Below, piece after piece: positions 10,158 through 60,522 of a stretch of 64,000 nucleotides of DNA. The notes beneath the pieces were generated by a model. The model ran no database searches. It was not told the origin of the DNA and saw only the letters and a program-made list of their open reading frames with translations. Every line of letters starts with the position of its first letter. Position 1 is the first letter of the stretch. The stretch comes from an uncultured Elusimicrobia bacterium (lineage in GTDB: Bacteria > Elusimicrobiota > Elusimicrobia > UBA1565 > UBA9628). Position numbers and translations under genes: made by a program. The stretch is taken from the NCBI GenBank assembly GCA_964653765.1, contig CAZZGQ010000001.1, forward strand, positions 5,456 through 69,455, read 5' to 3'.

Positions 10158-10276
10158 AGGGACGCGAACATCGGTACGATCAAGCGTGCCAGGATGGCGG
10201 CCCGACCACCCAGTTCCTCCGGAAAATGATCCGGACCCTTGCCGACAGGAGATTGGACCATTTCAGCATGGAGTCT

Positions 10277-15100: not shown

Positions 15101-16654
15101 CTGCTTGTGGAGTTCGCCAACCGCGAGCTGGCGCGAGGGAAGAGCCCGGATGAGGCTGTCATCGAGGCGGCGGCCGTCCGCCTGCGCCCGATCCTGATGA
15201 CCTCGCTGGCTACGCTGTTGGGCCTTCTGCCCATGGCCGTCGGTGGCGGCCGCGGCGCGCAGGCGAACGCGCCGCTGGCGCGCGCCGTGATCGGCGGCAT
15301 GATGGCCTCCACCGTCCTCGTGCTGCTGCTCGTGCCGCTGCTCTATAACGGGCTGCAAAGGCTCAAGGGGCCGAGGGGCCGGTCCGCGGCCACCGCAGCA
15401 TTGTTGCTCATCCTATTCGCAGCGCCCAAGGCCTCGGCCGAAACCGCCTCGTGGGCGCTGAGCTACGACGACGCCTTGGCCATGGCGCTCAAGGACAACC
15501 CTGGCCTGCTGGCCGCCGCGGCCAGGGTGGAGCAGGCCCGGGCGGCGGTCGTGGCGGCGCAAGCCTCCTACTACCCGCGGCTTGCCGCCTCGGCGATCGA
15601 CTCGTCAGGCATGGGCGGCTCCTCCTCGGCGCTGGGGATCACTGGTCTGGTCAATTCTCCCTACCGCAAGGGCGAGGCGGCCGGCCTGGACGCGGCGTGG
15701 AACGTCTACGACTTCGGACGCACCGCCTACGGGGCCAAGGCGGCGCGGGAGCAGCTCGAGGCCGCGCGGGCCGACGTCGAGGGCTTGAAGCTCGACGTCC
15801 GCGCCAAGGCGGCCGAGGCTTACTGCCGTTGCGCCGAGCTTCAAGGCCTTGGCGCGCTCTTCGAGCGCCAGGGAAGCGACCAGGCGAAGATCGTGGGCGA
15901 GCTGGAGGTCTACGTGCGCTCGGGTCTGCGCACCCCGGTCGAGCTCGGGCTCATGAAGGCCACGCTGGAGGGCATCGGAGCGCGCCGGCAGGAGGCGCGC
16001 GCGCTCGAGGCCGTGGCGCGCGAGGACCTCGCTGCTGTCATGGGCCATAGCGGGTCCGTTTCCTTCTCCTGCGTCTCGGATACCGCCGCGCCCGTGGTCC
16101 CGGCCATCGACGAGTCCTCCGCCCTGTCGCGCCGGCCCGAGCTCGCCGCCGCCCGGCTGCGGGCCGCCGCCGCGCAGGCGCGCTGGCGGGCGGCGGGCCG
16201 GGAACGCTGGCCCGTGTTGTCGGCCGTGGCGAGCGCCGGCGTTCTCTCCGAGACGAGCCTCGTGCCCAAGCAGGAGTGGAGCGCGGGCGTCGGCCTGCGG
16301 CTGCCGCTCTTCGAGGGCTTGCGCTTGGCGTCCGAGGAGAAGGCGGCGGCGCAAGCCGCGCGAGAATCCGAGTATCGCGTCGCGGTGGAGCAGCAAGCCG
16401 CGACGCGCGACGTCAGAGCAGCGGCGGCCTGGGCCGCCGGCGCGCGCGAGAAGCGGCTGCGGTTGGACGAGGAGGAGCGCACCGTCGAGCAAGCCTACCT
16501 GCTCGCCCGCCGGCGCTACTTGACCAAGGCCGGCAGCTTCGCCGACCTGCGCGACGCTCAAGGGATGTATTTTCGGATCGCCGAGGAGGATTTGGGGGCG
16601 GGCGAGGCCGAGCGGCTCGCTGTCGAGCAGCTCAAGATAGCGGCCGGAATGTAA
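12110..16654 (+). CDS. RND efflux permease (AcrB/HAE-type, ~1085 aa) continuing in frame into a TolC/OMF-like outer-membrane-factor domain (~430 aa)
   Basis: 12-TM RND body. After ...LLYNGLQRLKGPRGRS the frame continues without a stop into a signal-peptide-like segment (AALLLILFAAPKASA/ETAS) and OEP-family repeats. No MFP gene is adjacent. Confidence 0.7.
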   Translation: MRLARIAVHNPYWVVVLTLMTALLGGVCLSLLPKDILPTFKTSAVQVVTFYPGMPAEVMEKDITTRLERWTGQSNGIARQESKSMIGVSIVKDFFRPDIDPNTAMSQVTSFAMSDLFYLPPGTIPPMVMPFDPTAAVPLALITVQNPRMDESKLYDVAYFDLRNMLQGIPGVIAPAVYGGKLRRILAYVDPAKMAARDLSSLDVVQALRQSNVMIPTGDVKLGDKDVQVVTDALVPDVGRMNDFPIRAREGVEVRMKDVATVEDSHQIQTNIVRINGKRQVYIPIYRQPGANTIAVVDGIKKALSLILERLPQGMKLDVAADQSVFVRRAVESLSHELVLGGLLAALMVLLFLRSLRSSLAIFLAMPLSIFACFIGLYATGDTLNAMTLGGLALAVGRLIDDSIVVLENITRHIESGSTAREAALSAADEVAMPVLAATITTLIVFLPVFFLTGMGKFLFAPLARAVAFSIGASYVVAMTVVPAFCDKFLKARPPRRTASSDRRVLIERAIPAVERWLEPAVRFVRSSFGVPLPAPLASPELCAAVDSVAMLAPEPREWPLSYAGFVRGYRRLLARSLPRRGWIIAGAFGGLLLSLLLYPRIGKELFPAADVGHLTIHARMPTGTRIELSEAKAAQIERGLRDVLASDDLKLVIANIGVLNDWPAAYTPNSGPGDMFFEVEVGEGRRLSTQSCADALRAYFRKSFPDVEISIETGGMLTAALNMGLAAPIDIQVEGQDLKAAHEIARSIVDRVKGVPGAVDVGIQESVDYPQIAIELNRPKIARLGLTVDEVVKSVVTALNSSVNFAPAFWIDPKNGNHYFLGAQYREDEIRSLDALKAIGVTGSNQERTVRLGELADFRTTVAPSEIRHLDIKRVIDVFANVSGRDVGGVASDIARRLPKPQELPQGYRIRMRGEVSSMREAFANLGFGLLLAVALVYLVLAGQFRSFLDPLLILFAVPLGLTGVLAMLWATRTTFNIQSFMGVIFMVGIAVSNGILLVEFANRELARGKSPDEAVIEAAAVRLRPILMTSLATLLGLLPMAVGGGRGAQANAPLARAVIGGMMASTVLVLLLVPLLYNGLQRLKGPRGRSAATAALLLILFAAPKASAETASWALSYDDALAMALKDNPGLLAAAARVEQARAAVVAAQASYYPRLAASAIDSSGMGGSSSALGITGLVNSPYRKGEAAGLDAAWNVYDFGRTAYGAKAAREQLEAARADVEGLKLDVRAKAAEAYCRCAELQGLGALFERQGSDQAKIVGELEVYVRSGLRTPVELGLMKATLEGIGARRQEARALEAVAREDLAAVMGHSGSVSFSCVSDTAAPVVPAIDESSALSRRPELAAARLRAAAAQARWRAAGRERWPVLSAVASAGVLSETSLVPKQEWSAGVGLRLPLFEGLRLASEEKAAAQAARESEYRVAVEQQAATRDVRAAAAWAAGAREKRLRLDEEERTVEQAYLLARRRYLTKAGSFADLRDAQGMYFRIAEEDLGAGEAERLAVEQLKIAAGM

Positions 16655-27923: not shown

Positions 27924-29039
27924 CTAGAACCTCCTCAGCGCGGCGAAAGACGCGTACGCGAAGGCGGCGGCGACGGGCAGCGTCACGACCCATGCCAGCG
28001 CCATGTCGCGGATCGTCTTCCAGCGGAGGCTTCCGCCGCCCTCCGAAAGGCCGATCCCGACGATCGCTCCGGTGGAGACATGCGTCGTCGAGACGGGCAC
28101 CCCGAAGCGCGAGGCGACGGCGACAAGAAACGAGGTGACGAGATTGGCCGCGAAGCCGTCCTCCGGCTCGATGCGCGTGACCTTGTTGGCGAGGGTCTCG
28201 GTGACGCGCAGCCCACCGAGGAAGCTTCCCAGGCCCATAGCAGCCGCCACGAGGACGTAAAACCTCAGTCCCCCGTATCCTCCGGCCGCGGCGACGGCGA
28301 CTCCGAGGGCCAGGATCTTCGGCGTGTCGTTCAGGCCGCGCGCGAAGCTCGTCAGGCCCGAGGTCAGCCAGTGCATGCCGTCGATCAGGCGGATGCCGGA
28401 GACGACGCCGGCCGACGGCCGGCAAGCTTCGACGCGGTCGACGACGAGTCCCGGTTGGGCGTCATCCATAGCCACCGCGGCCGCGCCCGGCGCGCTCGTC
28501 AGCGAGAGCTTGAGCGCCGGCCGCACTTGCGCGCAGACGCAGTAGCCTTGGCAGACCGACAGCGCGCGGCGCATGCCGCGGTAGACGACGAGCGTCAGGA
28601 GGAGCGCCATGACGGGGCTGGCCAACAAGGGAAGCGCGAAGGTCTTGCCGAGCGCGGCCCACTTGAGCCCTCCTGCGCCCGCCGCGTAGAGGCCGGCCCC
28701 GAAAAGGGCCCCGGTCAGGGCATGCGTGGTCGAGACCGGAAGCCCCGTGGCGCTTGCGAAGGCGATCCACAGGAACGCCCCGATCGCCACGGCGATCAGG
28801 AACAGCGGGTCTTGCGTCGGCTGCACGAGCAGGCCCTTGCCGCTGAAGGCGGCCACGAGGCCCTGCGACGCGAAGGCCGCGGCGACGGCGCCCGCCACGG
28901 TCCAGAACGTCCCCCAGGCGACGGCCGCCCGAATGCGCGTAACCCCGCTGCCCACGAGAGTGGCGATTCCCTTGGAAACGTCGTTCGAGCCGTTGGCGAA
29001 GGCCAGGCCCAGCGTCAGCGCGACGAGTATCATGGTCAT
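27924..29039 (-). CDS. Inorganic phosphate transporter, PiT (PHO4) family
   Basis: ANGSNDVSKGIATLVGSG and a second GANDVANAIG-like repeat. 371 aa, ~10 TM. Confidence 0.8.
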   Translation of the reverse strand: MTMILVALTLGLAFANGSNDVSKGIATLVGSGVTRIRAAVAWGTFWTVAGAVAAAFASQGLVAAFSGKGLLVQPTQDPLFLIAVAIGAFLWIAFASATGLPVSTTHALTGALFGAGLYAAGAGGLKWAALGKTFALPLLASPVMALLLTLVVYRGMRRALSVCQGYCVCAQVRPALKLSLTSAPGAAAVAMDDAQPGLVVDRVEACRPSAGVVSGIRLIDGMHWLTSGLTSFARGLNDTPKILALGVAVAAAGGYGGLRFYVLVAAAMGLGSFLGGLRVTETLANKVTRIEPEDGFAANLVTSFLVAVASRFGVPVSTTHVSTGAIVGIGLSEGGGSLRWKTIRDMALAWVVTLPVAAAFAYASFAALRRF

Positions 29040-29099: not shown

Positions 29100-30509
29100 T
29101 TACTCCACGCAGCAGCTCATGTGGCGCACGTCGCGCTTAAAGGCTTGCGCGGCGATCTTGACGACCTCGGAGTAGGTCGGAAAAACGTGGACCAGGTCGA
29201 TGAGGTCGGAGGCCTTGAGGCCGTGCTGGATGGCGAGGGCCGGCTCATGGATGAGCTCGGCGGCGTTGGGCGAGATGACGTGAAAGCCCAGGACCTTGCC
29301 GTCCTTGGGATGGATCACCATCTTCGCGTAGCCGCGCAGCTCGTTGGTGATAGCGGCCTTGGACACGTACTTGAGCTCGACGCCGCGGCAGTCGCAAGCG
29401 CCGAAGCGCTCGATCGCCTGGGCCTCCGTGAGTCCGACCACGGCGATCTGCGGATCGGTGAAGACGGCGGCCGGCACGGCCTCGTAGTTGATCGTGAGCT
29501 TCTGGCCGCCCAACGCGTTCTTGACGGCGTTGGCGCCCTCGCGCGCGCCGACGGTCTCGAGCCACGGCGGCCCGGCCACGTCTCCGGCCGCGTAGACGTT
29601 GCCCGCGCGGGTGCGCAGGGTCTCGTCGACCTCGACGAAGCCGTTCTTGTCCGCCTTGAGGCCCACGGAGGACAGGTTCAGGTCCTCGGAGTTTCCTTTG
29701 ACCCCGACGGCGACAAACAGCTTCTCGGCGCGGAACTCGCGCGGCTTGCCGTCCACCTCCCCGGCCAAGACGACCTCCCGCCCTTCCTGACGGACGGCCT
29801 TGGGGGTCATCTTGGCGCACAGCTCGATGCCGTCTTCCTTAAAGACGTCCTCGATCACGCGCGAGACCTCTGGCTCGGTGAGCGAAAACGGCCGGTCGAG
29901 AGCCTCGACGCAGGCGATCTTCGTGCCGAAGCGGGCGAACATCTGGGCGACCTCGAGGCCGGTCGGCCCGGCGCCGATAACGATCATGCTCTTCGGCATT
30001 TCCCTCAAATCGAAGGCCGCGATGTTGTCGAGCACCGAGCCGGGCGCCAACGTCTCCAGCCCGGGCAGGAGCAACGGCTTGTTCGAGGAACCCGTGGCGA
30101 GGAGCACGTATTCGGCCTCGAAGAGCCGGTTGTCCGCCCGGATCCGCCCGGGGCCGTCCAGGCGCGCTCTCTTCTCGACGAGCTCTACGTGCTTGAAGCC
30201 GCGCATGATCTTCTCGTATTTGGCCTCGCGGCTAGCGTGGACGATCTCTTCCTTTTCGGCGATAGCCTCGGGAAACGAGAACTCCGGTGCCCGGCACTTG
30301 ATGGCCCGGAAGCGCGGCTTGAGGACGCGCCGGCGGTCAAAGCCCGCCTCCAGCAGGACTTTGCTCGGCACGCAGCCCACGTTGACGCAGGTCCCGCCCA
30401 GCGGCAGGCCTTTGTTGAAGACGACGGTCTTCGAGCCAAGCTCGTCGGCCGCCGCGGCGGCCGCGAACGCCGCGCCCCCTCCCCCGATGATGGCCAAGTC
30501 GTAGCTCAA
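29100..30509 (-). CDS. merA: Mercuric reductase MerA (core enzyme without N-terminal HMA domain)
   Basis: TTG start 5 nt after GAGGAGGGA. FAD site LGGTCVNVGCVPSK. C-terminal Cys pair ...RHMSCCVE. Start overlaps the stop of the upstream small mer transport gene. Confidence 0.8.
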   Translation of the reverse strand: MSYDLAIIGGGGAAFAAAAAADELGSKTVVFNKGLPLGGTCVNVGCVPSKVLLEAGFDRRRVLKPRFRAIKCRAPEFSFPEAIAEKEEIVHASREAKYEKIMRGFKHVELVEKRARLDGPGRIRADNRLFEAEYVLLATGSSNKPLLLPGLETLAPGSVLDNIAAFDLREMPKSMIVIGAGPTGLEVAQMFARFGTKIACVEALDRPFSLTEPEVSRVIEDVFKEDGIELCAKMTPKAVRQEGREVVLAGEVDGKPREFRAEKLFVAVGVKGNSEDLNLSSVGLKADKNGFVEVDETLRTRAGNVYAAGDVAGPPWLETVGAREGANAVKNALGGQKLTINYEAVPAAVFTDPQIAVVGLTEAQAIERFGACDCRGVELKYVSKAAITNELRGYAKMVIHPKDGKVLGFHVISPNAAELIHEPALAIQHGLKASDLIDLVHVFPTYSEVVKIAAQAFKRDVRHMSCCVE

Positions 30510-30709
30510 GGCTCCCTCCTCGTCCAGAGCCAAAACGCCAGGATCACGAGCCCGAACAGAACGGCGCCGATCCACCAGCGTCCGCTGGCCAATCCCGCCG
30601 CTCCTCCCGCGAGCAGCGCGGGAAAGAAGGCGCAGCAGATGACGCCCACAATGGCGATCACACCCGCCGCGATCGCGGCGAAAACGCCCAGCTTGCGCCC
30701 ATCGGCCAT
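30506..30709 (-). CDS. Small two-TM mercury-transport-like protein (MerF/MerT-like CC motif)
   Basis: 67 aa. TM1 IVGVICCAFFPALL (vicinal Cys + Pro) then a second TM. RBS CAGGAGGA. Divergent from merR. Confidence 0.5.
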   Translation of the reverse strand: MADGRKLGVFAAIAAGVIAIVGVICCAFFPALLAGGAAGLASGRWWIGAVLFGLVILAFWLWTRREP

Positions 30710-30809
30710 GAGTCCTCCTGTAGCGCCAGTTTATAGCCTGTACCACGGTCCAAGGTCGGTAGCGGACGAGTCTCCCCTCCGTCACGTCCTCGCGACGGGC
30801 GCAAAGGTC

Positions 30810-30842
30810 TTGACTCTATACCTGGGTATAGGCTGTAACATG
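30810..30842 (+). promoter_or_regulatory. MerR-type promoter: TTGACT - 19-bp spacer containing dyad CTATACC-tg-GGTATAG - GTAACA, ending at the merR start
   Basis: Seen in sequence. A 19-bp spacer with a centred dyad is the hallmark of MerR-family-regulated promoters. Confidence 0.55.
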
Positions 30843-31259
30843 AGGATGAACATGAACGAGAGTGTGACGATCGGAAGCGTGGCAAAGGCGGCGGGCGTGA
30901 ACATACAAACGGTGCGCTATTACGAGCGCCGGCGCCTGCTCGAGCCGGCGAGGCGCCTTGATTCCGGCTATCGCCTCTATTCCGGAGAGGCGGTGCGAAA
31001 GCTGCGCTTCATCAAGAACGCGCAGGCGCTGGGATTTTCTCTCGAGGAGATCCGCTCGCTGCTGCGGCTGCGCAGCGGCGGCCCGGCGTCGTGCGAGCGG
31101 GTCCGGCGCAGGGCGGCCAAGCATGCGGCGGACGTGCGCGAACGCATCGCGCGTCTGCGCGGCATGGAGCGGGTGCTCCGGCAGTTGATTCGGACCTGCC
31201 AGACGCGCGGCCGGACGGACGAGTGCCCGATCCTGAAGAGTCTCGAGGGAGAGAAATGA
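30840..31259 (+). CDS. merR: MerR-family Hg(II)-responsive transcriptional regulator
   Basis: TIGSVAKAAGVNIQTVRYYERRRLLEP HTH. Cys residues at MerR-like positions (CERV, CQTRGRTDECP). Three possible ATGs at 30840, 30846 and 30852. Confidence 0.85.
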   Translation: MRMNMNESVTIGSVAKAAGVNIQTVRYYERRRLLEPARRLDSGYRLYSGEAVRKLRFIKNAQALGFSLEEIRSLLRLRSGGPASCERVRRRAAKHAADVRERIARLRGMERVLRQLIRTCQTRGRTDECPILKSLEGEK

Positions 31260-31858
31260 ACAAGAACAGAATCCTCGGCCTATCCGCGGTGCTGTCCGCG
31301 GGGTTAGCCTCCATATGCTGCGTCGGGCCGCTGCTGGTCACGGCGCTGGGCTTAGGCAGCCTGCGTCTGGCGGCGGGTCTAGCCCGGTACCGGAGCTATT
31401 TCCTGGCGCTGACCGGCGCGATCTTGGCGGCGGGCTTTTACTTCGCCTATCGCAAACGTCCGGTGCAATGCGCGGATGGAAGCTGCCGGGTAGCCTCGGC
31501 GAGCCGCGTGGCGAAGGCGGGCCTGTGGCTGGCGACAGCCTTGGCCGCCGCCGTCGCGACGTTCCCGAACTGGTCGGCCCTCGCGCTGAGGAAAAGCGGG
31601 CCGGTGATCCCGGCGGGCGCTCAGGTCCTGACGCTCAATGTCTCCGGAATGGACTGCGCCGCTTGCGCCCCGGGCATCGAGAAGTCGGTCGAGAGAGTTC
31701 CAGGCGTGCTCTCGGCGCGCGTGGATTTCGAGCACGCCCGGGCAACGGTCGTCACCGACGGCAAGGCCGATCCCCGAGCGGTCGTCGCGTCGGTCAAATC
31801 GGCGGGTTATCAGGCGACCGTCGTCGGACTGGGTGCAAATGGAAAACCCCGCTCTTGA
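31256..31858 (+). CDS. merT: MerT-MerP fusion (mercuric transport protein with C-terminal HMA domain)
   Basis: ATGA overlap with the merR stop. TM1 SICCVGPLLVTALG (MerT). C-terminal GMDCAACAPGIEKSVERVPGV (GMxCxxC HMA). Confidence 0.8.
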   Translation: MNKNRILGLSAVLSAGLASICCVGPLLVTALGLGSLRLAAGLARYRSYFLALTGAILAAGFYFAYRKRPVQCADGSCRVASASRVAKAGLWLATALAAAVATFPNWSALALRKSGPVIPAGAQVLTLNVSGMDCAACAPGIEKSVERVPGVLSARVDFEHARATVVTDGKADPRAVVASVKSAGYQATVVGLGANGKPRS

Positions 31859-32333
31859 CCACGAGGCGTGTTGCAAGACCGTCGGCGGGGCTTGCCGGGC
31901 GCAGACCGGAATAGACACCTGCCCCCGTTGCGGGAAACAGGGCCGCAAGGTCGGCGGCGTCACTTTGGATCACCATCTGTCCCCTGCCGCGCGAGCCCGC
32001 TTCGGGCAACTCGCTGGATTCTGTCCAAATCCCAAATGCGCGGTCGTCTACTTCGACGGTAAGGCTGTCGCCTTGAGAGGCGAGACCGTGCTGCCCGTCA
32101 CCCAGAAGGACTCCAGCGACGACGTCCACGTCTGCTACTGCTTCAACTTCAAGCGTTCGGATATCCGGCGCGACCTCGTCCAGAAGGGAAGCACCGACAT
32201 CCCGCAGCAGGTCAAGAAAGGCATCGCCGAGGGCCGCTGCGACTGCGAGCGCAAGAATCCCCAGGGGGCCTGCTGCCTCGGGAACATCGCCGCGGCCGTC
32301 AAGGCCATTCAAGCGGAGGCACGCCGAAAATGA
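31839..32333 (+). CDS. Cys-rich metal-binding protein: N-terminal zinc-ribbon-like CxxC...CxxxxC plus C-terminal BFD-like [2Fe-2S]-type Cys motif
   Basis: 14 Cys in 164 aa: CCKTVGGAC, CPRCGKQG, FCPNPKC, VCYCFNFKRSDIRRDL...RCDCERKNPQGACCLGN. Overlaps the merTP 3' end by 20 nt. Confidence 0.5.
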   Translation: MENPALDHEACCKTVGGACRAQTGIDTCPRCGKQGRKVGGVTLDHHLSPAARARFGQLAGFCPNPKCAVVYFDGKAVALRGETVLPVTQKDSSDDVHVCYCFNFKRSDIRRDLVQKGSTDIPQQVKKGIAEGRCDCERKNPQGACCLGNIAAAVKAIQAEARRK

Positions 32334-32396
32334 GAGGCGGCTGGGTCCTGGCGGTGCTCTCGCTCCTTATCATGCTGCTCTGCTGTCTGAGGGACC

Positions 32397-32921
32397 TCAG
32401 TAGACGATGATCCGGTCGGCCGAATCGAACAATTCGACCATCTTCTTCAACGGCAGTGGCGTCACGGCCGGAGCCACCTTGGCCGGATCGATCTTGTAGA
32501 GCAGCATCATCGTCTTGTTCCCGTAGATCTCGACGCCTTTGCCCTTCAAGAAGTCGAGGTACTCGCCATAGTCATGCGGGACTTGCTCGAGCGGCAGCCC
32601 CATCTGCTCCGCGAGGCTCTGCCGCTCCCGGTCCGGGAGCTTCGCCCGGTCCATCGCGTCGGTCTTCGAGCGCTTGTGAAGAAGCCCGTATCCCCGTGTC
32701 ACGGAGGTGACCGCGCTCGCGTCGAAGAGTATCGTGACCTTATGACCGCTGGCGAGCTCCGCGAGGGCCACGTTGGGCGCGGCGCAAATCTGGGCGTCGT
32801 CCTTCGACAGAGCGGTCTTGACGTGGATCAATATTCGTTTGTCGTTCGATTGCGCCACGGCGGCGCCTCCCGTGGACAGAATGAATGCAGCCAACGGTAT
32901 CGCGATCCAGGGTTTTTGCAT
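32397..32921 (-). CDS. Periplasmic DsrE/DsrF-like family protein
   Basis: Signal peptide MQKPWIAIPLAAFILSTGGAAVA. ILIHVKT... DsrE-like fold signature. Expressed from a MerR-type promoter. Confidence 0.4.
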   Translation of the reverse strand: MQKPWIAIPLAAFILSTGGAAVAQSNDKRILIHVKTALSKDDAQICAAPNVALAELASGHKVTILFDASAVTSVTRGYGLLHKRSKTDAMDRAKLPDRERQSLAEQMGLPLEQVPHDYGEYLDFLKGKGVEIYGNKTMMLLYKIDPAKVAPAVTPLPLKKMVELFDSADRIIVY

Positions 32922-32924
32922 AGC

Positions 32925-33016
32925 GCACAGTTTACACCGAGGACCATGGTATAGAGTCAAGTAAAAATCTCGTGATCATGCCCTTGACTCTATACTTAGG
33001 TATAGGCTGTATTATT
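32925..33016. promoter_or_regulatory. Divergent pair of MerR-type promoters sharing the CTATACC half-site
   Basis: Plus strand 32982-33016: TTGACT-ctatacttaggtataggct-GTATTA, with dyad CTATAC-ttag-GTATAG. Minus strand 32960-32925: TTGACT-ctataccatggtcctcggt-GTAAAC. Same -35/operator as the merR promoter at 30810. Confidence 0.5.
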
Positions 33017-33021
33017 GAAGT

Positions 33022-33696
33022 ATGAAGATACAGTTGCTTTGTTTCGAAGGCTGCCCGAACATGGAGACAGCCCGCGCGAATCTGCGGGCGGCATTGGCGA
33101 GAGTTGGACTCGCCGCGCGCTGGGAGGAGGTCGACCTGCGCTCGGCCGGCTGTCCGGCACGATTGCGGGGATTCCCCTCCCCCACCGTGCTCGTTGACGG
33201 CGCAGATGTCTTCACCGGCGCGAAAGAGCAGCCGGGTCAGAGCGCGTGCCGCTTCGGGGGAGCGCCGGGCGTCGGGCCGATCGCGGCGGCGCTCAAGGCC
33301 CGTTCTTGGTCCTCGATGCTCGCCCCGCTTCCGGCCGCGCTGGCCGGTCTTCTGCCCGCCACGTTCTGCCCCGCCTGCTATCCGGCTCTGGGCGGACTGC
33401 TCGGCGCGATCGGGTTAGGCGCCTATGCCGAGCGGCTGCTCGCGCCGCTGACTCTCGTCCTGCTCGCCGCGGCGTTGGTCGGCCTCGGGTTTGAAGGACG
33501 GCGCGGCGGCGACTATCGCCCTCTGGCGCTCGGCGGGTTTGGCGCGGCAGCCATGTACGCGGGCCAGTTCCTGATCGCGTCGGCGCTCGTCAAGTTCGCC
33601 GGCATCGCGGTGCTTTTGGCGGCGTCGTTCTGGAACGTTTTCCCGCGCCTCAAGCGAAGCCGCGACAGCTGCCCCGCTTGCGCGGAAGGGAGGTGA
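33022..33696 (+). CDS. merC: Thioredoxin-like domain fused to MerC-type mercury transporter
   Basis: N-terminus LLCFEGCPN...PTVLVDGADV (Trx-like). C-terminus TFCPACYPALGGLLGAIGLGAY matches MerC MGCAACFPALASFGAAIGLGFL. A second CPAC lies near the C-terminus. Confidence 0.6.
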   Translation: MKIQLLCFEGCPNMETARANLRAALARVGLAARWEEVDLRSAGCPARLRGFPSPTVLVDGADVFTGAKEQPGQSACRFGGAPGVGPIAAALKARSWSSMLAPLPAALAGLLPATFCPACYPALGGLLGAIGLGAYAERLLAPLTLVLLAAALVGLGFEGRRGGDYRPLALGGFGAAAMYAGQFLIASALVKFAGIAVLLAASFWNVFPRLKRSRDSCPACAEGR

Positions 33697-33700
33697 CGCG

Positions 33701-33976
33701 ATGGCGAAGCGAACGGTGGAAGTGTTCACGGCCGGCTGTCCCGTGTGTGAGGACGCCGTCAAAAAGGTCAACTCGCTCGCGTGCCCGGACTGCGAGGTCA
33801 AGATATACGACCTCAACCGGGGTTGCGCGACCAACGAGTGCCGCGAGAGGGGCGAGAAGTACGGCGTCAAGCGCCTTCCGGCGGTGGCGGTCGACGGCAA
33901 GCTGCTCGACTGCTGCAGCCAGGGTGGCGTGGACGTCAAGAAGCTGCAGGCGGCCGGCGTGGGCAGGAGGGCGTGA
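33701..33976 (+). CDS. Small thioredoxin/glutaredoxin-like protein (CPVC active site, additional CC pair)
   Basis: [18 protein letters not shown]...[16 protein letters not shown], Thioredoxin_3-like. Confidence 0.5.
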
Positions 33977-34053
33977 AGCGCGGCCCGGCGAAAGCCGGGC
34001 CGCCGAATTGTGACGAGGCCGGCACGCGTTCGCCGTCGCCGCGCTCTGGGGAA

Positions 34054-36351
34054 ATGACTTCAATGGGCGGAGTGATTGGACAATTGGCCAAGGACCCCGT
34101 GTGCGGGATGAACGTTGATCCGAAGACGACACCCTATCGGCTCGCGCACGGCGGCTCCGATTGCTACTTCTGCGGGAAGCGCTGTCTGGAACGCTTCCAA
34201 GCGGCTCCGGAGCGGTTCCTAACTGCACGCCCGGCAGAGCCACGAGTGGGCGGCGAATACACGTGCCCGATGCATCCCGAGGTCCGTCAGCAAGGCCCCG
34301 GCGCCTGCTCGCTTTGCGGCATGGCCCTCGAACCGCTCGAAGTCTCGGTCGAGGAGCCGGAGAACGCCGAACTGGCCGACATGCGCCGGCGCTTCTTCGT
34401 CAGCGCCGCTCTCACGGTGCCGCTCGTCGGGCTCGCCATGGCGGACATGGCGACGCGCTTGCCGCTTTCGGCGCGGCCGCGCTCGATCATAGAGCTGGCG
34501 CTCGCGTCTCCGGTGGTGCTCTGGGGCGGAAAGCCCTTCTTCGAGCGCGGCTGGGCATCCGTCGTCACCCGTCATCTCAACATGTTCACGCTGATCGCGA
34601 TGGGCACCGCCGCCGCCTACCTGTTCAGCCTGGGAGCCGTCATCGCGCCGAGCCTGTTTCCCCCCTCCTTCCGCACGGCCGAAGGCCAGGTGCCGGTCTA
34701 CTTCGAGGCCGCAGCCGTCATCACGACGCTCGTGCTCTTGGGCCAGGTCCTCGAGATCAAGGCGCGCAGCAGGACGACGAGCGCCATCCGCTCGCTGCTT
34801 GGCATGGCGCCGAAGACGGCGCGCCTGGTCGAGGCCCAGGGCGAGCGCAACGTGCCGCTCGCCGAGGTCGTCAAGGGCCAGACGCTGCGGGTTCGGCCGG
34901 GTGAGCGCGTCCCGGTCGACGGCTGCATCATCGAAGGGCGCAGCTCCATCGACGAGTCGATGATCACGGGCGAGCCGATACCAGCCGAGCACGGCCAAGG
35001 AGAGCAGGTCAAGGCTGGGACGATCAACGGGACGGGGAGCTTCCTCATGCGCGCCGAGAACGTGGGCAGCGAGACGCTGCTCGCCCACATCGTGCGAATG
35101 GTGGGCGAAGCGCAGCGCTCCCGCGCACCGATCCAGAGGCTAGCCGACGTCGCGGCGTCGTACTTCGTGCCGGCGGTGGTCGCTGTGGCCGCTGCCGCTT
35201 TCATCGGCTGGACGCTCTTCGGCCCCGCGCCCAAGGCGCTTCACGGCCTGGTCTCGGCCGTCGCCGTCCTTCTCATCGCCTGCCCGTGCGCGCTAGGATT
35301 GGCCACGCCCATGTCCATCATGGTCGGCACGGGCCTTGGAGCCACGCGAGGCATCCTCATCAAGGACGCCGAAGCCCTCGAGACCTTCGGCCGCATCGAC
35401 ACGCTCGTCATCGACAAGACCGGAACGCTGACCGAAGGCAAGCCCCGGCTGACCGCCGTATCCCCGATCTCGCCGTTCACCGACGACGAGGCCCTGCGCG
35501 CGGCGGCAAGCCTCGAGCGTTACAGCGAGCATCCCCTCGGCCAAGCGATTGCTGCGGAAGCCGAGCGGCGAAAGCTCAGGCCGGGCTCCGTTGAAGGCTT
35601 CGAGTCCCGAACGGGCCTGGGCATCACCGGCCGTCTCGACGGTCGGCGCGTCGCGGTCGGAAGCCCGGCGCTCATGCGCGAGCTCCGAGTGGACGACCGC
35701 GCGATGGCCGACGCGGCGGCCAAGCTGCGGGCCGAAGGCCAGACCGCGCTTTTCGTCGCCGTGGACGGACAGCCCGCCGGCGTGCTCGGCGTCTCCGACC
35801 CTGTCAAGGAGAGCAGCGCGGAGGCGATCGCCGCTCTGCACCGCGAGGGCGTCCGCGTCATCATGATGACCGGCGATCATCCCGCGAGCGCCGAAGCGGT
35901 GGCCAAGCGCCTCGGCATCGACGACGTGCATGCCGAGGTGCTGCCGCAGGACAAGGCGCGCGTCGTCCAAGAGCTTCAGCGCCAGGGCCGCAAGGTCGCC
36001 ATGGCCGGCGACGGGATCAACGACGCGCCCGCGCTCTCCCAGGCCGACGTGGGCGTCGCCATGGGTACGGGCACCGATGTGGCCATCGAGAGCGCGGGGA
36101 TCACGCTCGTCAAAGGCGACCTGCGGGCGCTGTCGCGCGCGCGCCGGCTTAGCCGCGCGACGCTCAGAAACATCAAGCAGAACCTGTTCTTGGCCTTCGT
36201 CTACAACGGCCTCGGCATCCCCATCGCGGCGGGGGCGCTTTATCCGGTCTTCGGTATCCTGCTCAGCCCAATGATCGCGGCCGCGGCCATGACCTTCAGT
36301 TCCTTGTCTGTCGTGGGAAACGCTCTCAGGCTGCGGAGGCTCGCCCTATAG
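34054..36351 (+). CDS. P1B-type heavy-metal-translocating ATPase with N-terminal YHS/TRASH-like Cys domains (CPC transmembrane motif)
   Basis: DPVCGMNVD...YFCGKRC, CPMHPE, CSLCGM. TM6 [29 protein letters not shown]. 765 aa. Confidence 0.9.
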
Positions 36352-38443: not shown

Positions 38444-38644
38444 ATGCACAAAAACTACGGGAGCACGAAGCGGTTCGGAAACGACGGCTGGCTCTTGACC
38501 ATCCAGATCAAGGGCACGACGCGCGATGAGGCGGCGAAGGCCTTGCACAAGGTCTGCCGGCTCATTAGGGCGGGCACGATGTCGGGGGCCGACAGCACGG
38601 ACGCCCAGGCGTATATCTTCAAGTTCCAGGAGGCGGCCCGATGA
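38444..38644 (+). CDS. Small protein with conserved N-terminal peptide (MxKxxxxxKRFGxxGW)
   Basis: 66 aa. N-terminus MHKNYGSTKRFGNDGW is shared with the genes starting at 39820 and 42723. ATGA coupling to the downstream RadC-like gene. Confidence 0.5.
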   Translation: MHKNYGSTKRFGNDGWLLTIQIKGTTRDEAAKALHKVCRLIRAGTMSGADSTDAQAYIFKFQEAAR

Positions 38645-39060
38645 AAATCCGCGTGATGGTCGTGCGGGAGGGCAAGCCGTCGAAGGCCGAACTGAACAAC
38701 CCGCTGGCGGTCTTCAACTTCATGAAGCGCCGGGCTCGCGGGCTCGACCGGGAGCATTTCTGGCGGATTGATGTCGATTCGAGGTCAAAGCCGATTTCCG
38801 TCGACACGGTCTCGGTCGGGACCCTTTCGGCAAGCCTCGTGCATCCGAGAGAATTCTTCCGGCCGGCGCTGGTCTTGCCGACGGCTGGCGTTATCGCGAT
38901 CCATAATCACCCTTCGGGCGAGACGACGCCGAGTCCGGAAGACAAGGACGCGACGAACCGGCTGCGCCGTGCTGGTGAGCTTCTCGGCGTTCCCTTGTTG
39001 GACCACGTGATCGTCTCGGACACGTCGTTCTTCAGCTTCAAGGAAGCCGGGCTGCTCTAG
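38641..39060 (+). CDS. RadC-like JAB/MPN-domain protein (UPF0758)
   Basis: HNHPSGETTPSPEDKDATNRL is the JAMM motif region of RadC/YeeS. Confidence 0.75.
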   Translation: MKIRVMVVREGKPSKAELNNPLAVFNFMKRRARGLDREHFWRIDVDSRSKPISVDTVSVGTLSASLVHPREFFRPALVLPTAGVIAIHNHPSGETTPSPEDKDATNRLRRAGELLGVPLLDHVIVSDTSFFSFKEAGLL

Positions 39061-40575: not shown

Positions 40576-40645
40576 ATCGACCAGGGCCCTTCGAGGCGAC
40601 TCGGAGGGCCCGCGCCGGGTCAGGCCCGGAATCAAAACACATGGA
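40565..40645 (+). repeat. ~75-bp structured repeat (copy 2)
   Basis: See 40195-40275. Confidence 0.6.
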
Positions 40646-42170
40646 GAACACGATGACCAACCAAGAAACGAAGCAGGAAGCCGTCGCCGTCAAGGAGGTC
40701 GCGCTCGAAAGCGTGGCCATCGAGAAGATCGAGATCGTCGAGAACGTCCGCAAGCACTTCGACGCCGCCGCCATGAAGGAACTGACCGAGAGCATCCGGC
40801 ACAACGGCATCCTTGTGCCCTTGCTCCTGGCCAAGAACGGCAAGCCCGGCGTCTACCGCCTCATCGCAGGGGAGCGCCGCTTGCGGGCAGCGAAGGCGCT
40901 GGACTTGAAGAGCGTCCCGGCGCAGATCGTGGAGGCCGACGCCGCCAAGCTCGAAGAGTTGCAAGTCCTGGAGAACCTCCACCGGGCCGACCTCGGGCCC
41001 ATCGAGGAGGCGCGCGCCTTCAAGAAGCTCCTCGACGGCGGCAAACACACCATCGAGGGCTTGGCGAAGCAAGTGGACAAGTCGGTCAAGTACGTCACGC
41101 GCTCCATCCGGCTCTTGGAGCTTCCGAAGAAGGCCGTCCTGGCCATCGAGAAGGGCACGATCACGCCCGAGCATGGCCACCAACTCCTGCGCGTCCCGGA
41201 GGATCGGCGCGAGAGCTTGGTCGAGTACGCGCTGACGCCCAAGTGGGGCGGCGTCATGCGCACCATCCACGAGCTGGTCTCCGAGATCGAGAACCGGGTC
41301 GAGAAGGACCTGGCGAAGGCTTGCTTTCCGAAGGACCGGGAGTACGCAGGCCAGACGGCTTGCTTGGCCTGCCCGTTCAACACCGGCAATCAGAACGTCC
41401 TCTTCGAAGGCGCGACGGCGGGCAAATGCACCAACAGCGGGTGCTTCACGAAGAAAACCAACCTCTTCTTGAAGGAGTTCAAGGAGAAAGCGGTCAAGCA
41501 GTTCAACGGCCTCAAGTGCGTCGGCATGGGCTCGGCGGGATGGAACGGCTTGCGCGAGGTCAAAGGAGCCGTCGTGCTGACCGCCGAGGAGGCGAAGAGC
41601 CCGAAGGTCAAGGCGATGATCGACAAGGAGCCCGAAAAGTTCGGCTTCGCCGTGGTCAAGCCGTCGGCCTACAGCGGCGCGAAGGCTCCGAGCGCGGTCC
41701 TGGTCTGCCAGGACAGGGAGCTTCTCGACAAGGAAATCCGCAAGCCCGCCGAGAGCGGCGAGCGACCGCTGACGCAGGAGGATCGGGAGCGCGAGCAGTT
41801 CCTCGAAGAGGCCAAGGTCCGGGCGCTGTTCGCCGAAGGAGCGCGAGTCCTCAAGAGCATCAAGAAAAAGCACCTGATCGGCATCGTCCTGGCTCTGCCC
41901 GGCACGGACGCCGCCTACGAGGCTATCGGCGTGGCGCAAGCGGAGAACCTCCCGGCAGCGCTGGCGAAGCTGTCGGAGAAAGACCTCCTGCGGCTGGCCT
42001 ACCTGTGCGCCATCGACGCCTACAACCTCGACGAGGAGTTCGAGGAGATCGGCGTGAGCGTTCCGAAGGTCCGCAGAGAGGCCCGCAAGGCGGCGCTGGC
42101 CGAGTGGGAGCAGGCCCTCAAGGCCAAGGCCGAGAAGCCCGAGGAGAAGGAGGTAGCCGCGACCAAGTAA
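40641..42170 (+). CDS. ParB/Spo0J-like N-terminal (nuclease/partition) domain protein with long Cys- and Lys-rich C-terminal region
   Basis: ESIRHNGILVPLLL...YRLIAGERRLRAAKAL is a ParB-N motif. 509 aa. Confidence 0.7.
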   Translation: MENTMTNQETKQEAVAVKEVALESVAIEKIEIVENVRKHFDAAAMKELTESIRHNGILVPLLLAKNGKPGVYRLIAGERRLRAAKALDLKSVPAQIVEADAAKLEELQVLENLHRADLGPIEEARAFKKLLDGGKHTIEGLAKQVDKSVKYVTRSIRLLELPKKAVLAIEKGTITPEHGHQLLRVPEDRRESLVEYALTPKWGGVMRTIHELVSEIENRVEKDLAKACFPKDREYAGQTACLACPFNTGNQNVLFEGATAGKCTNSGCFTKKTNLFLKEFKEKAVKQFNGLKCVGMGSAGWNGLREVKGAVVLTAEEAKSPKVKAMIDKEPEKFGFAVVKPSAYSGAKAPSAVLVCQDRELLDKEIRKPAESGERPLTQEDREREQFLEEAKVRALFAEGARVLKSIKKKHLIGIVLALPGTDAAYEAIGVAQAENLPAALAKLSEKDLLRLAYLCAIDAYNLDEEFEEIGVSVPKVRREARKAALAEWEQALKAKAEKPEEKEVAATK

Positions 42171-56422: not shown

Positions 56423-56699
56423 CAGCCCATCACCAAAGCATTTTCAATCGGCTGCTCTCCTGAAAATACTCCAAGTCCTCCCTGCCCGTACACGACGATA
56501 ATTCGACGGCCCGGTGTTGGCACCGAAATTGCTCCCGGAATCCGGACGGCCGCGGAGGACCGTCCGCCGTGTAGCCCCGCGAATACGGCGCGGGGGCATC
56601 CACGACCTGGCCGCAACCGGGTGAGACCACGGGAAACGATGAGACATCGTCTCTCGTTCTGCGCCACGGTGGCGGGAGACGGGAGGCAGGAGAGACCGT

Positions 56700-59643: not shown

Positions 59644-60522
59644 GTGATCAAGTTCAAGGTCAATCGGGATGGGAAGGAGTTGGAAGTAGAGGTTGGTGAG
59701 AGGACTTTCAACATTCTGAGAGTTCTAGAGAAGTGGGGTGTATTGGGACTAGCCCAGGTAAAAGGACTGCTGTTTGGGGAAGGACTGAGTGAAATCGAAA
59801 GGATGAGGTTCTTCTTCAACTGGAAGTTCAAGGAGGAGTATACCGGGGCCTGCTACAAGGCGATGAAGGTGCTGGAGGAGCTAGGGCTGATCGAGACGCA
59901 GCACTACGTGAACATGCCTTGGCTGTTCTACCTGACTAGGGAAGGGCAGGCGGTCTTGAGAAGGGCCGGCTTTCAGCAACTCGGGGAGATCCGGCGCCCG
60001 TTGTTGGACTCCCTGGTCAAGCACGAAGTGCTGGTGACGGGCATCGGGTTGACGCTGACGGAGCTTCTGCGGCTTGACGTTTCGACCGAGTTCGAGCGAC
60101 AGGTCCTGAGCCGCGGCGGCGAGCAGGACGCGCGCCGGGAACCATTTCCGCTTCCCGATCTGTGGGTCTCCGATCCGGGGCAGCCCAAGGCGATCGAGGT
60201 CGAGCGGACGCTCAAGTCGATGGCCCGCTACCGCAAGCTCTGGACGTTCTACCGAAACAATCTGCCCGGCTCGGCGGTCGTTCTTTACATCACGGCCTTC
60301 GCCAACGGGCCGCGGTTGCTGCTGGCACGCGCGCGCAAACTGATGGCGGATTTCGTCTACGTCTGCGCGCTCGAAGACTTTCAGGCCAGCTTCGGCCGGT
60401 GCGCGTTCGTGGGCTATCGCGGCGCGGAAATCCGGCTCGCGCCGCGCGCCGGCCATTCCCATGCGCATCCCCATCCTCTGGCTCCTTCCCCGTCCCTGGA
60501 AGGAGAAGGAAGGCTTCGATGA
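59644..60522 (+). CDS. Winged-helix protein, possibly replication-relaxation (Replic_Relax-like) family, ATGA-coupled to the T4 coupling protein gene
   Basis: Lower-GC gene. Location and coupling to a VirD4/TraD gene are typical of Replic_Relax. Sequence assignment is tentative. Confidence 0.35.
   Translation: MIKFKVNRDGKELEVEVGERTFNILRVLEKWGVLGLAQVKGLLFGEGLSEIERMRFFFNWKFKEEYTGACYKAMKVLEELGLIETQHYVNMPWLFYLTREGQAVLRRAGFQQLGEIRRPLLDSLVKHEVLVTGIGLTLTELLRLDVSTEFERQVLSRGGEQDARREPFPLPDLWVSDPGQPKAIEVERTLKSMARYRKLWTFYRNNLPGSAVVLYITAFANGPRLLLARARKLMADFVYVCALEDFQASFGRCAFVGYRGAEIRLAPRAGHSHAHPHPLAPSPSLEGEGRLR

Follow-up and report, generated by a model that had tools for sequence, protein, structure and literature searches.

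The control of mercury resistance genes by MerR at an over-spaced promoter is, together with the core mer genes, textbook knowledge. In the transposons Tn501 and Tn21 the regulator MerR, a winged helix-turn-helix activator-repressor with three Hg(II)-binding cysteines, acts at a single operator (merO, in the promoter PmerT), which has half-sites reading CCGTAC and directly follows a TTGACT -35 hexamer within an over-long spacer of 19 bp. In these systems merR is divergent from the genes that it activates, the gene set includes merT, merP, merC and merA as well as merD/merE, and the reductase MerA carries an NmerA domain. In the mer operons of Gram-positive bacteria (Bacillus RC607, Staphylococcus aureus pI258) merR is promoter-proximal and co-transcribed from a MerR-regulated promoter, more than one MerR-controlled promoter is possible, and the Bacillus MerA carries NmerA domains. 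A spacer of 20 bp is found in the promoter PzntA of Escherichia coli, and its regulator ZntR is the exception to the 19-bp spacer rule among the characterized metal-sensing promoters of the MerR family (PMC3431237). Here, a mer locus of nine genes in four transcription units is described, which lies at 29.1-36.4 kb of a 64-kb stretch of DNA (64,000 nucleotides, called the window in the following) from an uncultured Elusimicrobia bacterium. It is probably a chromosomal Hg(II) resistance regulon of this uncultivated organism, in which one MerR would act at four over-spaced promoters via DNA distortion.

The locus shares with Tn501 and Tn21 the type of regulator including an identical spacing of the three Hg-ligand cysteines, the TTGACT hexamer, the dyad directly after it, the over-long spacer and the gene set merT, merP, merC and merA. 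It differs from them in the half-site, CTATAC(C), in the spacer of 20 bp with the additional bp on the -10 side, in the position of merR as the first gene of an activated operon, in the presence of four sites instead of one, in the absence of merD/merE and NmerA, and in the added accessory genes. In a comparison made from general knowledge, the promoter-proximal, co-transcribed merR and the possibility of several MerR-controlled promoters are shared with the Gram-positive mer loci, whereas the operator sequence and the accessory genes differ, MerA is devoid of NmerA and the transcripts are predicted to be leaderless. With PzntA the locus has the 20-bp spacer in common, while ZntR is a sensor of Zn(II) with other ligands and another regulon. 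As judged from the sequence, the operator variant with its 20-bp spacer, the layout of four promoters in two pairs, the predicted leaderless starts and the accessory gene set appear to be new.

The promoters were located by sequence identity and by a position weight matrix (PWM), which was built from 107 distinct related sites and with which both strands of the window were scanned. They are the following:

30809 to 30841, plus strand: P1, cTTGACT-CTATACC TG GGTATAG GCTG-TAACAT, a perfect 7-2-7 dyad in a 20-bp spacer, upstream of merR-merTP-copZN
32983 to 33015, plus strand: P2, cTTGACT-CTATAC TTAG GTATAG GCTG-TATTAT, with T as seventh dyad base, PWM score 51.8, upstream of DF-merC-trx3
32929 to 32961, minus strand: P3, cTTGACT-CTATACC AT GGTCCTC GGTG-TAAACT, PWM score 36.4 (the third-best in the window), upstream of U174
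30728 to 30760, minus strand: P4, ACCGACC TTGGACC GT GGTACAG GCTA TAAACT, found by the PWM scan, upstream of a 67-aa gene and merA

The 13-mer CTTGACTCTATAC is present in three exact copies in the 64 kb, at 30809 (+), 32983 (+) and 32961 (-), each about 40 nt ahead of a start codon, and it did not occur in any of 100 shuffled sequences. An earlier interpretation, made from the letters of the DNA and called the sequence-only reading here, had proposed three promoters with one shared dyad, and the exact copies of the 13-mer bear this out. The TTGACT hexamers occupy 30810-30815 (+), 32984-32989 (+) and 32960-32955 (-), which agrees with two of the coordinates of that reading (30810 and 32960); the third, 32982, has to be shifted to 32984. 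The full dyad CTATAC-N4-GTATAG was found twice, in P1 and P2, versus 0.12 copies expected. The longer form that had been proposed, CTATACC..GGTATAG, is exact in P1, but the deviating seventh base of P2 changes it to CTATAC-TTAG-GTATAG. The degenerate distal half-site that had been assigned to the minus-strand copy was recovered in P3, which reads CTATACC-AT-GGTCCTC and has a perfect -35-proximal half-site. The proposed spacer of 19 bp had to be given up, as the distance to the conserved TAnnnT hexamer is 20 bp. The dyad had also been said to differ from the classical merO, and this is true of the half-site; its centre lies 8.5 bp into the spacer, which we take, from a count on the published Tn501 sequence, to be the very register of the Tn501 merO, and the dyad is widespread rather than peculiar to this locus (see below).

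The count of three promoters was incomplete. In the PWM scan P1 and P2 scored 52 and P3 scored 36, and P4 was sixth of about 128,000 positions; the only ones ahead of it were P1 to P3, and P1 and P2 read in reverse. P4 has a good -10 hexamer and a good half-site next to it; its -35 half is degenerate. Its -10-proximal 17-mer is GGTACAGGCTATAAACT, and with the proximal half of the PWM it scored 20.4, compared with 23.1 for P1 and 20.9 for P2; the best match outside these promoter sites reached 8.1. In addition, GGTAYAGGCTRTA is confined to P1, P2 and P4 in the window. P4 is followed by a 12-nt leader with AGGAGG and by the ATG at 30709. Because P4 precedes the 67-aa gene and merA, the sequence-only reading had missed the promoter that would control the reductase.

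The four promoters form two divergent pairs. The dyad centres of P4 and P1 are 78 bp apart, those of P3 and P2 are 51 bp apart (about five helical turns), and the -35 hexamers of the latter pair are separated by 23 bp. P2 resembles the promoter of a merR operon that lacks merR itself. P3 and P4 are hemi-sites that complement each other. In P3 the -35 hexamer and the half-site next to it are retained, in P4 the half-site next to the -10 hexamer and this hexamer itself, and in both the decayed half reads GGTCC. With only half a dyad, P3 is a putative binding site of MerR. It could be argued that P1 and P2 alone are functional, that P3 and P4 are decayed copies left by a rearrangement, and that U174 and merA are expressed constitutively or in response to other signals. 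The missing distal half-site of P3, the missing -35-proximal half-site of P4 and its poor -35 sequence (CCGACC) would fit this, and so would the finding that U174 homologues elsewhere are located inside operons and not behind a promoter of their own, as well as the fact that a divergent two-site arrangement was not present in any other fetched locus. Yet each of the two sites has kept the relevant promoter hexamer and a block of 13-17 nt that is identical or nearly identical to P1 and P2, and both are at the right distance from a start codon. The promoter scan did not reveal a canonical sigma-70 promoter with a 16-18-bp spacer anywhere in 29.0-36.6 kb that could replace them, and a merA without a regulated promoter would be unusual. 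Decay of P3 and P4 is thus regarded as rather doubtful, and four operative promoters are the preferred reading.

The start codons are very close to the promoters, i.e., 7 nt after the -10 hexamer for DF-merC, 8 nt for U174, and 5 or 11 nt for merR, which has alternative in-frame ATGs at 30846 and 30840. Because of these distances of only 5-11 nt, the transcripts from P1, P2 and P3 are predicted to be leaderless or nearly so. Leaderless starts may also explain why DF-MerC and CopZN are truncated in public gene calls: the DF-MerC call has 211 aa, starts 13 codons later and loses the invariant C11, and the CopZN call (Logan contigs) has only 81 aa. A scan for consensus terminators revealed nothing relevant in the locus.

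The operator is not restricted to this locus. An exact-pattern scan of metagenomes yielded at least 120 stretches with the operator, and 107 distinct evaluable sites were among those listed. In 83 of these 107 sites merR follows directly; several of the other listed sites are wrong-frame calls of an open reading frame (ORF) over merR itself, and a few listed sites directly precede merT-merA, trx3 or unknown genes. Two positions outside the search pattern turned out to be conserved among the listed sites, namely the last T of TAnnnT (105 of 107) and the C before TTGACT (94 of 107). Because this last T was not part of the search and is nevertheless conserved, TAnnnT at a distance of 20 bp from TTGACT is the best reading of the -10. 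Operators that were located by protein homology alone, without the DNA pattern, had an identical layout (loci L007, L008, L010, L011, L133, L137, L138 and L139), and the contigs with merR homologues of 60-81% identity all had the operator upstream of merR. In L133 both half-sites are altered symmetrically (CAATACC-CA-GGTATTG) and the palindrome is retained, which argues that the dyad is a selected feature. Two or three operator sites were present in L010, L038, L046, L065, L137 and L138. Taken together, these comparisons identify the sequence as an operator of autoregulation that is conserved in this MerR clade. For MerR itself, 1,519 relatives were found at E<=1e-10. A search of the open-access literature for the operator word returned no relevant paper.

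Four operon types recurred with this operator, i.e., merR-(DF-MerC)-(Trx3), merR-merTP-(CopZN), merR-merT/P-merA and merR-Trx3. In the relatives, merR-DFmerC-trx3 and merR-merTP-copZN are separate operons; the window joins both modules and merA under one merR. The operator sequence is therefore a simple handle for finding regulon members in metagenomes, and it also exposes gene-calling errors such as those of DF-MerC and CopZN. In two further loci the operator stands directly before a gene for a secreted protein with the motif HCDTMDGPVV, without merR in between (L037, plus strand, from about 2061, 368 aa; L045, minus strand, from about 2548, 216 aa). From its position this protein would be a further, hitherto unknown member of the regulon.

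The regulator gene is the first gene behind P1:

30852 to 31259, plus strand: merR, 135 aa, Pfam MerR 51.6, MerR_1 68.4 and MerR-DNA-bind 71.6, all above the cut-offs

These domains give the protein the N-terminal winged helix-turn-helix and the dimerization helix expected of a MerR regulator. The top NCBIfam model was TIGR02051 (MerR proper) with a score of 128.9, and the best solved structure in a phmmer search was that of Tn501 MerR (5CRL). Cys81, Cys116 and Cys125 align with Cys82, Cys117 and Cys126 of Tn501 MerR, and the 35/9 spacing is identical. A dyad operator inside a promoter with a spacer of 19-20 bp, as expected for a MerR protein, was found at P1 and P2, which have full dyads and 20-bp spacers. 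One MerR had been proposed to control three units, the ATPase gene among them. The shared operator before each unit and the detection of a single merR homologue in the window agree with this; for the ATPase gene the control is unproven, because a 10-bp hairpin and a 78-bp gap precede it and its linkage is not conserved.

The identity of the signal is less clear. The regulator might respond broadly to thiophilic metals (Cu/Ag/Au/Cd/Pb) or to something other than Hg, and the locus might serve a mixed copper and heavy-metal homeostasis with merA as one output. The score of the regulator is below the cut-off of the MerR model (150.85), and only about 20 bits separate it from CadR-PbrR (109.5) and CueR (106.3); taken together, the CadR/PbrR, CueR and ZntR models are about 20-30 bits under the MerR model. 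The cysteines of PbrR (C79/C114/C123) have the same 35/9 spacing, and thus the cysteine triad alone is no proof of Hg specificity. Moreover, the ATPase of the locus is a close homologue of Legionella pneumophila CopA with Cu(I) signatures, CopZN is homologous to the N-terminal domain of a copper chaperone, and in many relatives that share the operator no merA is in view, while genes for P1B ATPases or for efflux systems of the resistance-nodulation-division (RND) or cation diffusion facilitator type are found nearby. However, MerR proper was first among both the NCBIfam models and the solved structures, all three Hg ligands align, CueR has a serine at the position of the first cysteine, a bona fide merA, a merT, a merP-like HMA domain and a merC are directly under these promoters, and many related operators precede merT-merA operons. 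A broad or non-Hg sensor is therefore considered unlikely, and Hg(II) is favoured as the inducer, mainly by the gene context.

With Hg(II) as inducer, regulation would proceed as follows. A MerR homodimer would bind to the dyad (consensus CTATACC-N2-GGTAYAG) between the TTGACT -35 and the TAnnnT -10, which are 20 bp apart. In analogy to Tn501 MerR, the apoprotein would hold the over-spaced promoters closed, and Hg(II), once coordinated by Cys81 from one subunit together with Cys116/Cys125 from its partner, would under-wind the DNA and switch on transcription. P4 would then drive the 67-aa gene and merA, possibly together with a PHO4 gene; P1 would drive the autoregulated operon merR-merTP-copZN; P3 would drive the gene of the secreted DsrE-fold protein U174; and P2 would drive DF-merC-trx3, with possible read-through into the gene of the CopA-type ATPase.

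The genes of these four units, apart from merR and the ATPase gene, are:

29100 to 30509, minus strand: merA, 469 aa, TTG start, core only, TIGR02053 466.5 (cut-off 454.45)
30506 to 30709, minus strand: CC67, the 67-aa protein with two predicted transmembrane (TM) segments and a vicinal CC in TM1 (VICCAFFPALL)
31256 to 31858, plus strand: merTP, a fusion with Pfam MerT 35.4 (cut-off 32.9) and HMA 56.2
31839 to 32333, plus strand: copZN, 164 aa, 13 Cys, NF047645 CopZ_Nterm_CC 104.9 (cut-off 100), Pfam zf_CopZ 51.4
32397 to 32921, minus strand: U174, 174 aa, Sec signal peptide, DsrE/YchN-like fold by AlphaFold2 (AF2) and Foldseek
33022 to 33696, plus strand: DF-merC, 224 aa, Pfam MerC PF03203 31.5 (cut-off 27.6)
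33701 to 33976, plus strand: trx3, 91 aa, 8 Cys, Pfam Thioredoxin_3 25.2 (cut-off 24.8, marginal)

NmerA is not a defining feature of MerA, and the MerA of the locus was confirmed to be a 469-aa core without this domain. It contains C41/C46 in GGTCVNVGC and a C-terminal SCCV, of which C466/C467 align with the C-terminal CC of 4YWO. The best solved structures were this NmerA-less MerA (273 bits) and Tn501 MerA (1ZK7). Like 4YWO, it is a core-only mercuric reductase with both cysteine pairs; unlike 4YWO, it is encoded on a bacterial chromosome, and its gene is preceded by that of an orphan CC membrane protein. In a search with one genome per species, the only match to the MerA query was a flavoprotein of 30% identity in Phenylobacterium (L001).

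The orphan protein is CC67, the stop codon of which overlaps with the merA start (TTGA). It had been described as a MerF-like protein with two TM segments and a CC motif. The two predicted TM segments and the CC motif are present, but a homology to MerF is not: CC67 matched no Pfam or NCBIfam family, MerF and MerE were not listed even at E<=10, and a word-index search found no homologue. A relationship to MerF or MerE was therefore rejected, and the resemblance is one of design only (two predicted TM segments, CC-x-x-x-P). The sole small relative in an exhaustive HMMER search of 1.84 billion representatives was P0250, a protein of 63 aa with 51% identity and a conserved CC.

The MerT-MerP fusion was verified, as both Pfam domains of MerTP were above their cut-offs. 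In the MerT part three TM segments are predicted, CC21/22 is in TM1 and C72/C77 in a loop, and the cysteines of the HMA domain are 134/137 (GMDCAAC). The MerP-like C-terminal HMA domain is predicted to be periplasmic. The best NCBIfam model, MerTP_fusion (NF033556), scored only 86 (cut-off 180); MerTP has this architecture but belongs to a different lineage.

The start of copZN overlaps with the end of merTP by 20 nt. CopZN had been noted as a protein with 14 cysteines, whereas 13 were counted. A CC motif at its N-terminus is accompanied by a zinc ribbon and by a cysteine cluster of the [2Fe-2S] type. The proposed zinc ribbon and [2Fe-2S]-type cysteines could thus be retained, but the label BFD-like is better replaced by the CopZ N-terminal family (NF047645, zf_CopZ and 2HU9). 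The match to the N-domain of Archaeoglobus fulgidus CopZ (PDB 2HU9) had an E value of 5e-9 and covered residues 27-148, and the zinc-ribbon cysteines as well as the CxC...CxC...CC cluster cysteines are shared with it. In contrast to that protein, CopZN has no C-terminal HMA domain, carries an additional invariant N-terminal CC and is encoded in a mer instead of a cop operon. The cysteine columns and the additional CC are conserved in seven relatives. The N-terminal domain of A. fulgidus CopZ binds Zn and a [2Fe-2S] cluster, and CopZN is, from its cysteine pattern, a putative Zn- and [2Fe-2S]-binding protein.

The fusion of a thioredoxin-like domain to MerC had been predicted correctly and is conserved in the orthologues. 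The N-terminal domain of DF-MerC scored 45.5 with the DF family NF049942, below the cut-off of 70, and weakly with Thioredoxin_3; with the NCBIfam MerC equivalogs the protein failed (26.2 versus 170). Its cysteines are C11 and C76 in the DF domain, CPAC116-119 in TM1 of MerC and the C-terminal CPAC217-220, and in 14 aligned orthologues C11, C76, the MerC CPxC and the C-terminal CxxC were invariant. Downstream of merR, the DF domain was found in 15 full MerC fusions and in 16 free matches with the N-terminal domain only. A single-sequence AF2 model of DF-MerC was too poor for use, with a predicted local distance difference test (pLDDT) value of 57 and a predicted template-modelling score (pTM) of 0.30.

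The third cysteine-rich protein, Trx3, is a recurrent partner of this merR clade. It had been recognized as a small CPVC thioredoxin, and CPVC13-16 was indeed invariant. In 20 aligned orthologues six cysteines were invariant, in CPxC13-16 (here CPVC), CxxC28-31 and CC71-72.

The protein encoded behind P3, U174, did not reach the threshold of any Pfam or NCBIfam family (DsrE PF02635 13.4 versus 22.7), and sub-threshold DsrE matches were found for 12 of 26 family members (best E=0.0088). The AF2 model had a pLDDT of 79 and a pTM of 0.73, and in a Foldseek search it matched 3PNX, 3MC3, 2QS7, 1JX7 and 2HY5 with E values down to 5e-7, a probability of 1.0 and template-modelling scores of 0.5-0.7. 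Thus, the DsrE-like gene that had been proposed to diverge from the P2 block is supported at the level of the fold. The predicted fold is that of the DsrE/DsrF/YchN superfamily; unlike the members of that superfamily, U174 is secreted (Sec signal), has invariant motifs of its own (DDAQxCAxPN, PHxYGEY and YGNxTMMLLY), and its genes are linked to mer and not to sulfur-relay genes. The 26 aligned members had a mean column identity of 75%, with C46 (the one invariant cysteine), H33, H116 and M138/M139 as invariant residues and a variable signal peptide. In total, 713 homologues were found at E<=0.001, and the 120 listed are 61-100% identical.

The U174 family was linked to mer or metal genes in four of four contexts, including the window. 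In the three other fetched contexts (L133, L135 and L137) the gene is located inside mer or metal clusters, i.e., merR-merTP-CopZN-HMA-U174 homologue in an Elusimicrobia metagenome-assembled genome (MAG, L133), merA-U-CsoR-DsbD-ATPase in a 3.9-Mb genome and merR-CMD-U-RND in a Nitrospirota MAG. A CMD/AhpD-like gene shares the cluster with the U174 homologue in L137 (5606-6004, immediately upstream) and in L135 (2148-2525, about 3.5 kb upstream), which suggests that CMD and U174 are a recurrent pair across two unrelated mer clusters. The window does not contain a CMD gene.

These proteins suggest a route for the metal. In the periplasm the tethered MerP-like HMA domain, perhaps together with the DsrE-fold protein, would capture Hg(II), and the metal would cross the membrane via the cysteine pairs of MerT or MerC, i.e., by the two uptake routes MerTP and DF-MerC. 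Cytoplasmic carriers with cysteine pairs (the DF domain, the six-cysteine Trx3 and the CC motif of CopZN) would take over Hg(II) and stand in for the missing NmerA. It would then reach the C-terminal CC of MerA and be reduced to Hg(0) with NAD(P)H. As MerA is devoid of NmerA, the conserved cysteine-pair proteins are concrete candidates for the step that brings Hg(II) from the membrane transporters to reductases of the NmerA-less type.

Several points weigh against this scheme and against the regulon as a whole. The order of the thiol relay and the role of the DsrE-fold protein in Hg handling are conjecture. Most relatives with the DF-merC-trx3 module do not have merA within several kb, and therefore the module may not feed MerA. 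To these points belong also the single good half-sites of P3 and P4, the poor -35 of P4, the Cu(I)-type ATPase with its unconserved linkage to trx3, the regulator score below the cut-off and the cysteine spacing shared with PbrR. The anatomy of the sequence, the assignment of the proteins to families and the conserved operator were observed directly, and from them we infer the binding of MerR, the identity of the inducer, the transcription starts and the relay order.

In a still wider sense, the U174 family, the DF-MerC fusion, the six-cysteine thioredoxin-like protein and the CC-motif CopZ-N protein would together make up an unrecognized pathway of Hg(II) handling, widespread among uncultivated bacteria of soil and groundwater. 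This is a speculative proposal with a low probability. If true, the pathway could work without NmerA, in many lineages without an adjacent MerA, and with a distinct MerR clade, a 20-bp-spacer operator and leaderless transcripts; examples of its activities would be the thiol- or persulfide-based capture or sequestration of Hg in periplasm and cytoplasm and the delivery of electrons from an Fe-S protein. Irrespective of this, the locus is a compact guide to an environmental mer variant with a conserved operator, merR-first operons and conserved cysteine-pair proteins.

The last gene of the locus follows trx3 on the same strand and is separated from it by a gap of 78 bp with a hairpin:

33980 to 34003, plus strand: hairpin between trx3 and the ATPase gene, with a perfect stem of 10 G+C pairs, a GAAA loop and no U-tract
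34054 to 36351, plus strand: P1B-1 (CopA-type) ATPase, 765 aa, Pfam YHS, HMBD, E1-E2_ATPase and Hydrolase, no HMA

The ATPase had been described as a CPC-type P1B ATPase with a YHS/TRASH-like N-terminus instead of HMA domains, and YHS (residues 13-58), HMBD (residues 69-94) and CPC were all found. It scored 588 with TIGR01511 (cut-off 397) and contains the motifs CPC, NX6YNX4P, MX2SSX5N and DKTGT. With the CopA equivalog NF007952 it failed (679 versus 1316), in a match that covers positions 189-833 of the 838-position model. Its residues 68-765 match the P1B-1 Cu(I) ATPase CopA of L. pneumophila (3RFU) with 857 bits; the two are close homologues and share HMBD, CPC, NX6YNX4P and MX2SSX5N. The protein of the locus differs in the added N-terminal YHS domain and in its position downstream of a MerR-type promoter. 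The architecture had been counted among the unusual features of the locus; YHS domains on copper ATPases are already known (PMC4626032), and this part of the claim was dropped.

The ATPase gene may or may not belong to the MerR regulon, because of the hairpin and the gap and because the linkage differs in related loci: in L011 a 59%-identical ATPase homologue is convergent to merR-DFmerC, and in the closest relative, L139, the ATPase is absent from the position behind trx3, which another gene occupies. The Cu(I)-type signatures, the strong hairpin and the unconserved linkage to trx3 count against membership, and they would fit an independent copper pump that is merely adjacent. The gap, however, contains no promoter recognizable in the promoter scan, the hairpin has no U-tract and was not called by the consensus terminator scan, the gene is on the same strand as trx3, and P1B ATPases, with YHS-HMBD or of other types, are found repeatedly close to this merR clade. 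The hairpin could serve in attenuation, in termination or in mRNA stability. An independent pump is a serious possibility that falls somewhat short of an even chance, and for membership in the regulon the odds are roughly even.

P1B ATPases of another kind are encoded on the same strand downstream of the operator (or of merR, where it is adjacent) in L027, L047, L062, L073, L111 and L113. Their TM4 motif is GYPC(A/V)G instead of the usual CPC, they have N- and/or C-terminal HMA domains, and in NCBIfam they fall only into the generic heavy-metal P1B subfamily. Possibly, these ATPases are a distinct mer-linked subtype.

The closest relatives of the mer proteins of the window were found in Elusimicrobiota and Nitrospirota MAGs. 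On the left the locus is flanked by genes for PHO4, GT87, GT2 and a phosphorylase, on the right by hypothetical genes and then by RadC, a ParB-like gene and an extracytoplasmic function (ECF) sigma factor. The gene next to merA is:

27924 to 29039, minus strand: PHO4/PiT-family transporter, Pfam PHO4 in public gene calls, 60 bp downstream of merA on the same strand

The PHO4 gene may be co-transcribed with merA, and the membership of the transporter in the system is uncertain. PHO4 genes also flank the mer clusters of L133 (842-1834, Elusimicrobia MAG) and L137 (1112-2245, Nitrospirota MAG), with only about 35% identity; this adjacency may be a functional link or merely a conserved neighbourhood. 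The order PHO4-GT87-mer was found again in L133, and the flanking genes are only 29-35% identical. Because PHO4 and GT87 flank the mer cluster of this Elusimicrobia MAG at such a low identity, the neighbourhood is probably old rather than the result of a recent insertion.

The locus had been called a mer island, and no support for this was found. The G+C content of 0.64-0.69 across the locus is like that of the flanks without any shift, the whole 64-kb window contains no tRNA gene, and no integrase or transposase domain was detected among the flanking ORFs that were scanned. The reading as a genomic island or mobile element is therefore unsupported. Farther downstream, conjugation-type genes are present on the plus strand, i.e., a RadC-like JAB gene (38641-39060), a ParB-like gene (40641-42170) and a gene for a TraG/TraD-type coupling protein (60162-62279). 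These genes may be what is left of a conjugative or integrative element; they are noncontiguous with the mer genes, and nothing ties them to mer.

Several further features were observed in the window. Two RNA motifs of Rfam were found, a 2dG-II purine riboswitch aptamer at 56564-56635 (+) with 74.4 bits (gathering score 60) and an nhaA-I motif at 10192-10238 (-) with 42.8 bits (gathering score 37). Two RND efflux systems are encoded at 3488-8837 (+) and 12110-16654 (+). One of them has the order OEP, CusB/HlyD-type membrane fusion protein, AcrB, and the other is a single ORF of 1,514 aa with an AcrB-family domain and an OEP domain, which may be an unusual fusion or a merged ORF. The last example is a 493-aa protein encoded at 661-2142 (-), which combines an MtrA-like domain (tetrahydromethanopterin S-methyltransferase subunit A) with the pterin-binding DUF4346 and is unusual in a bacterium.

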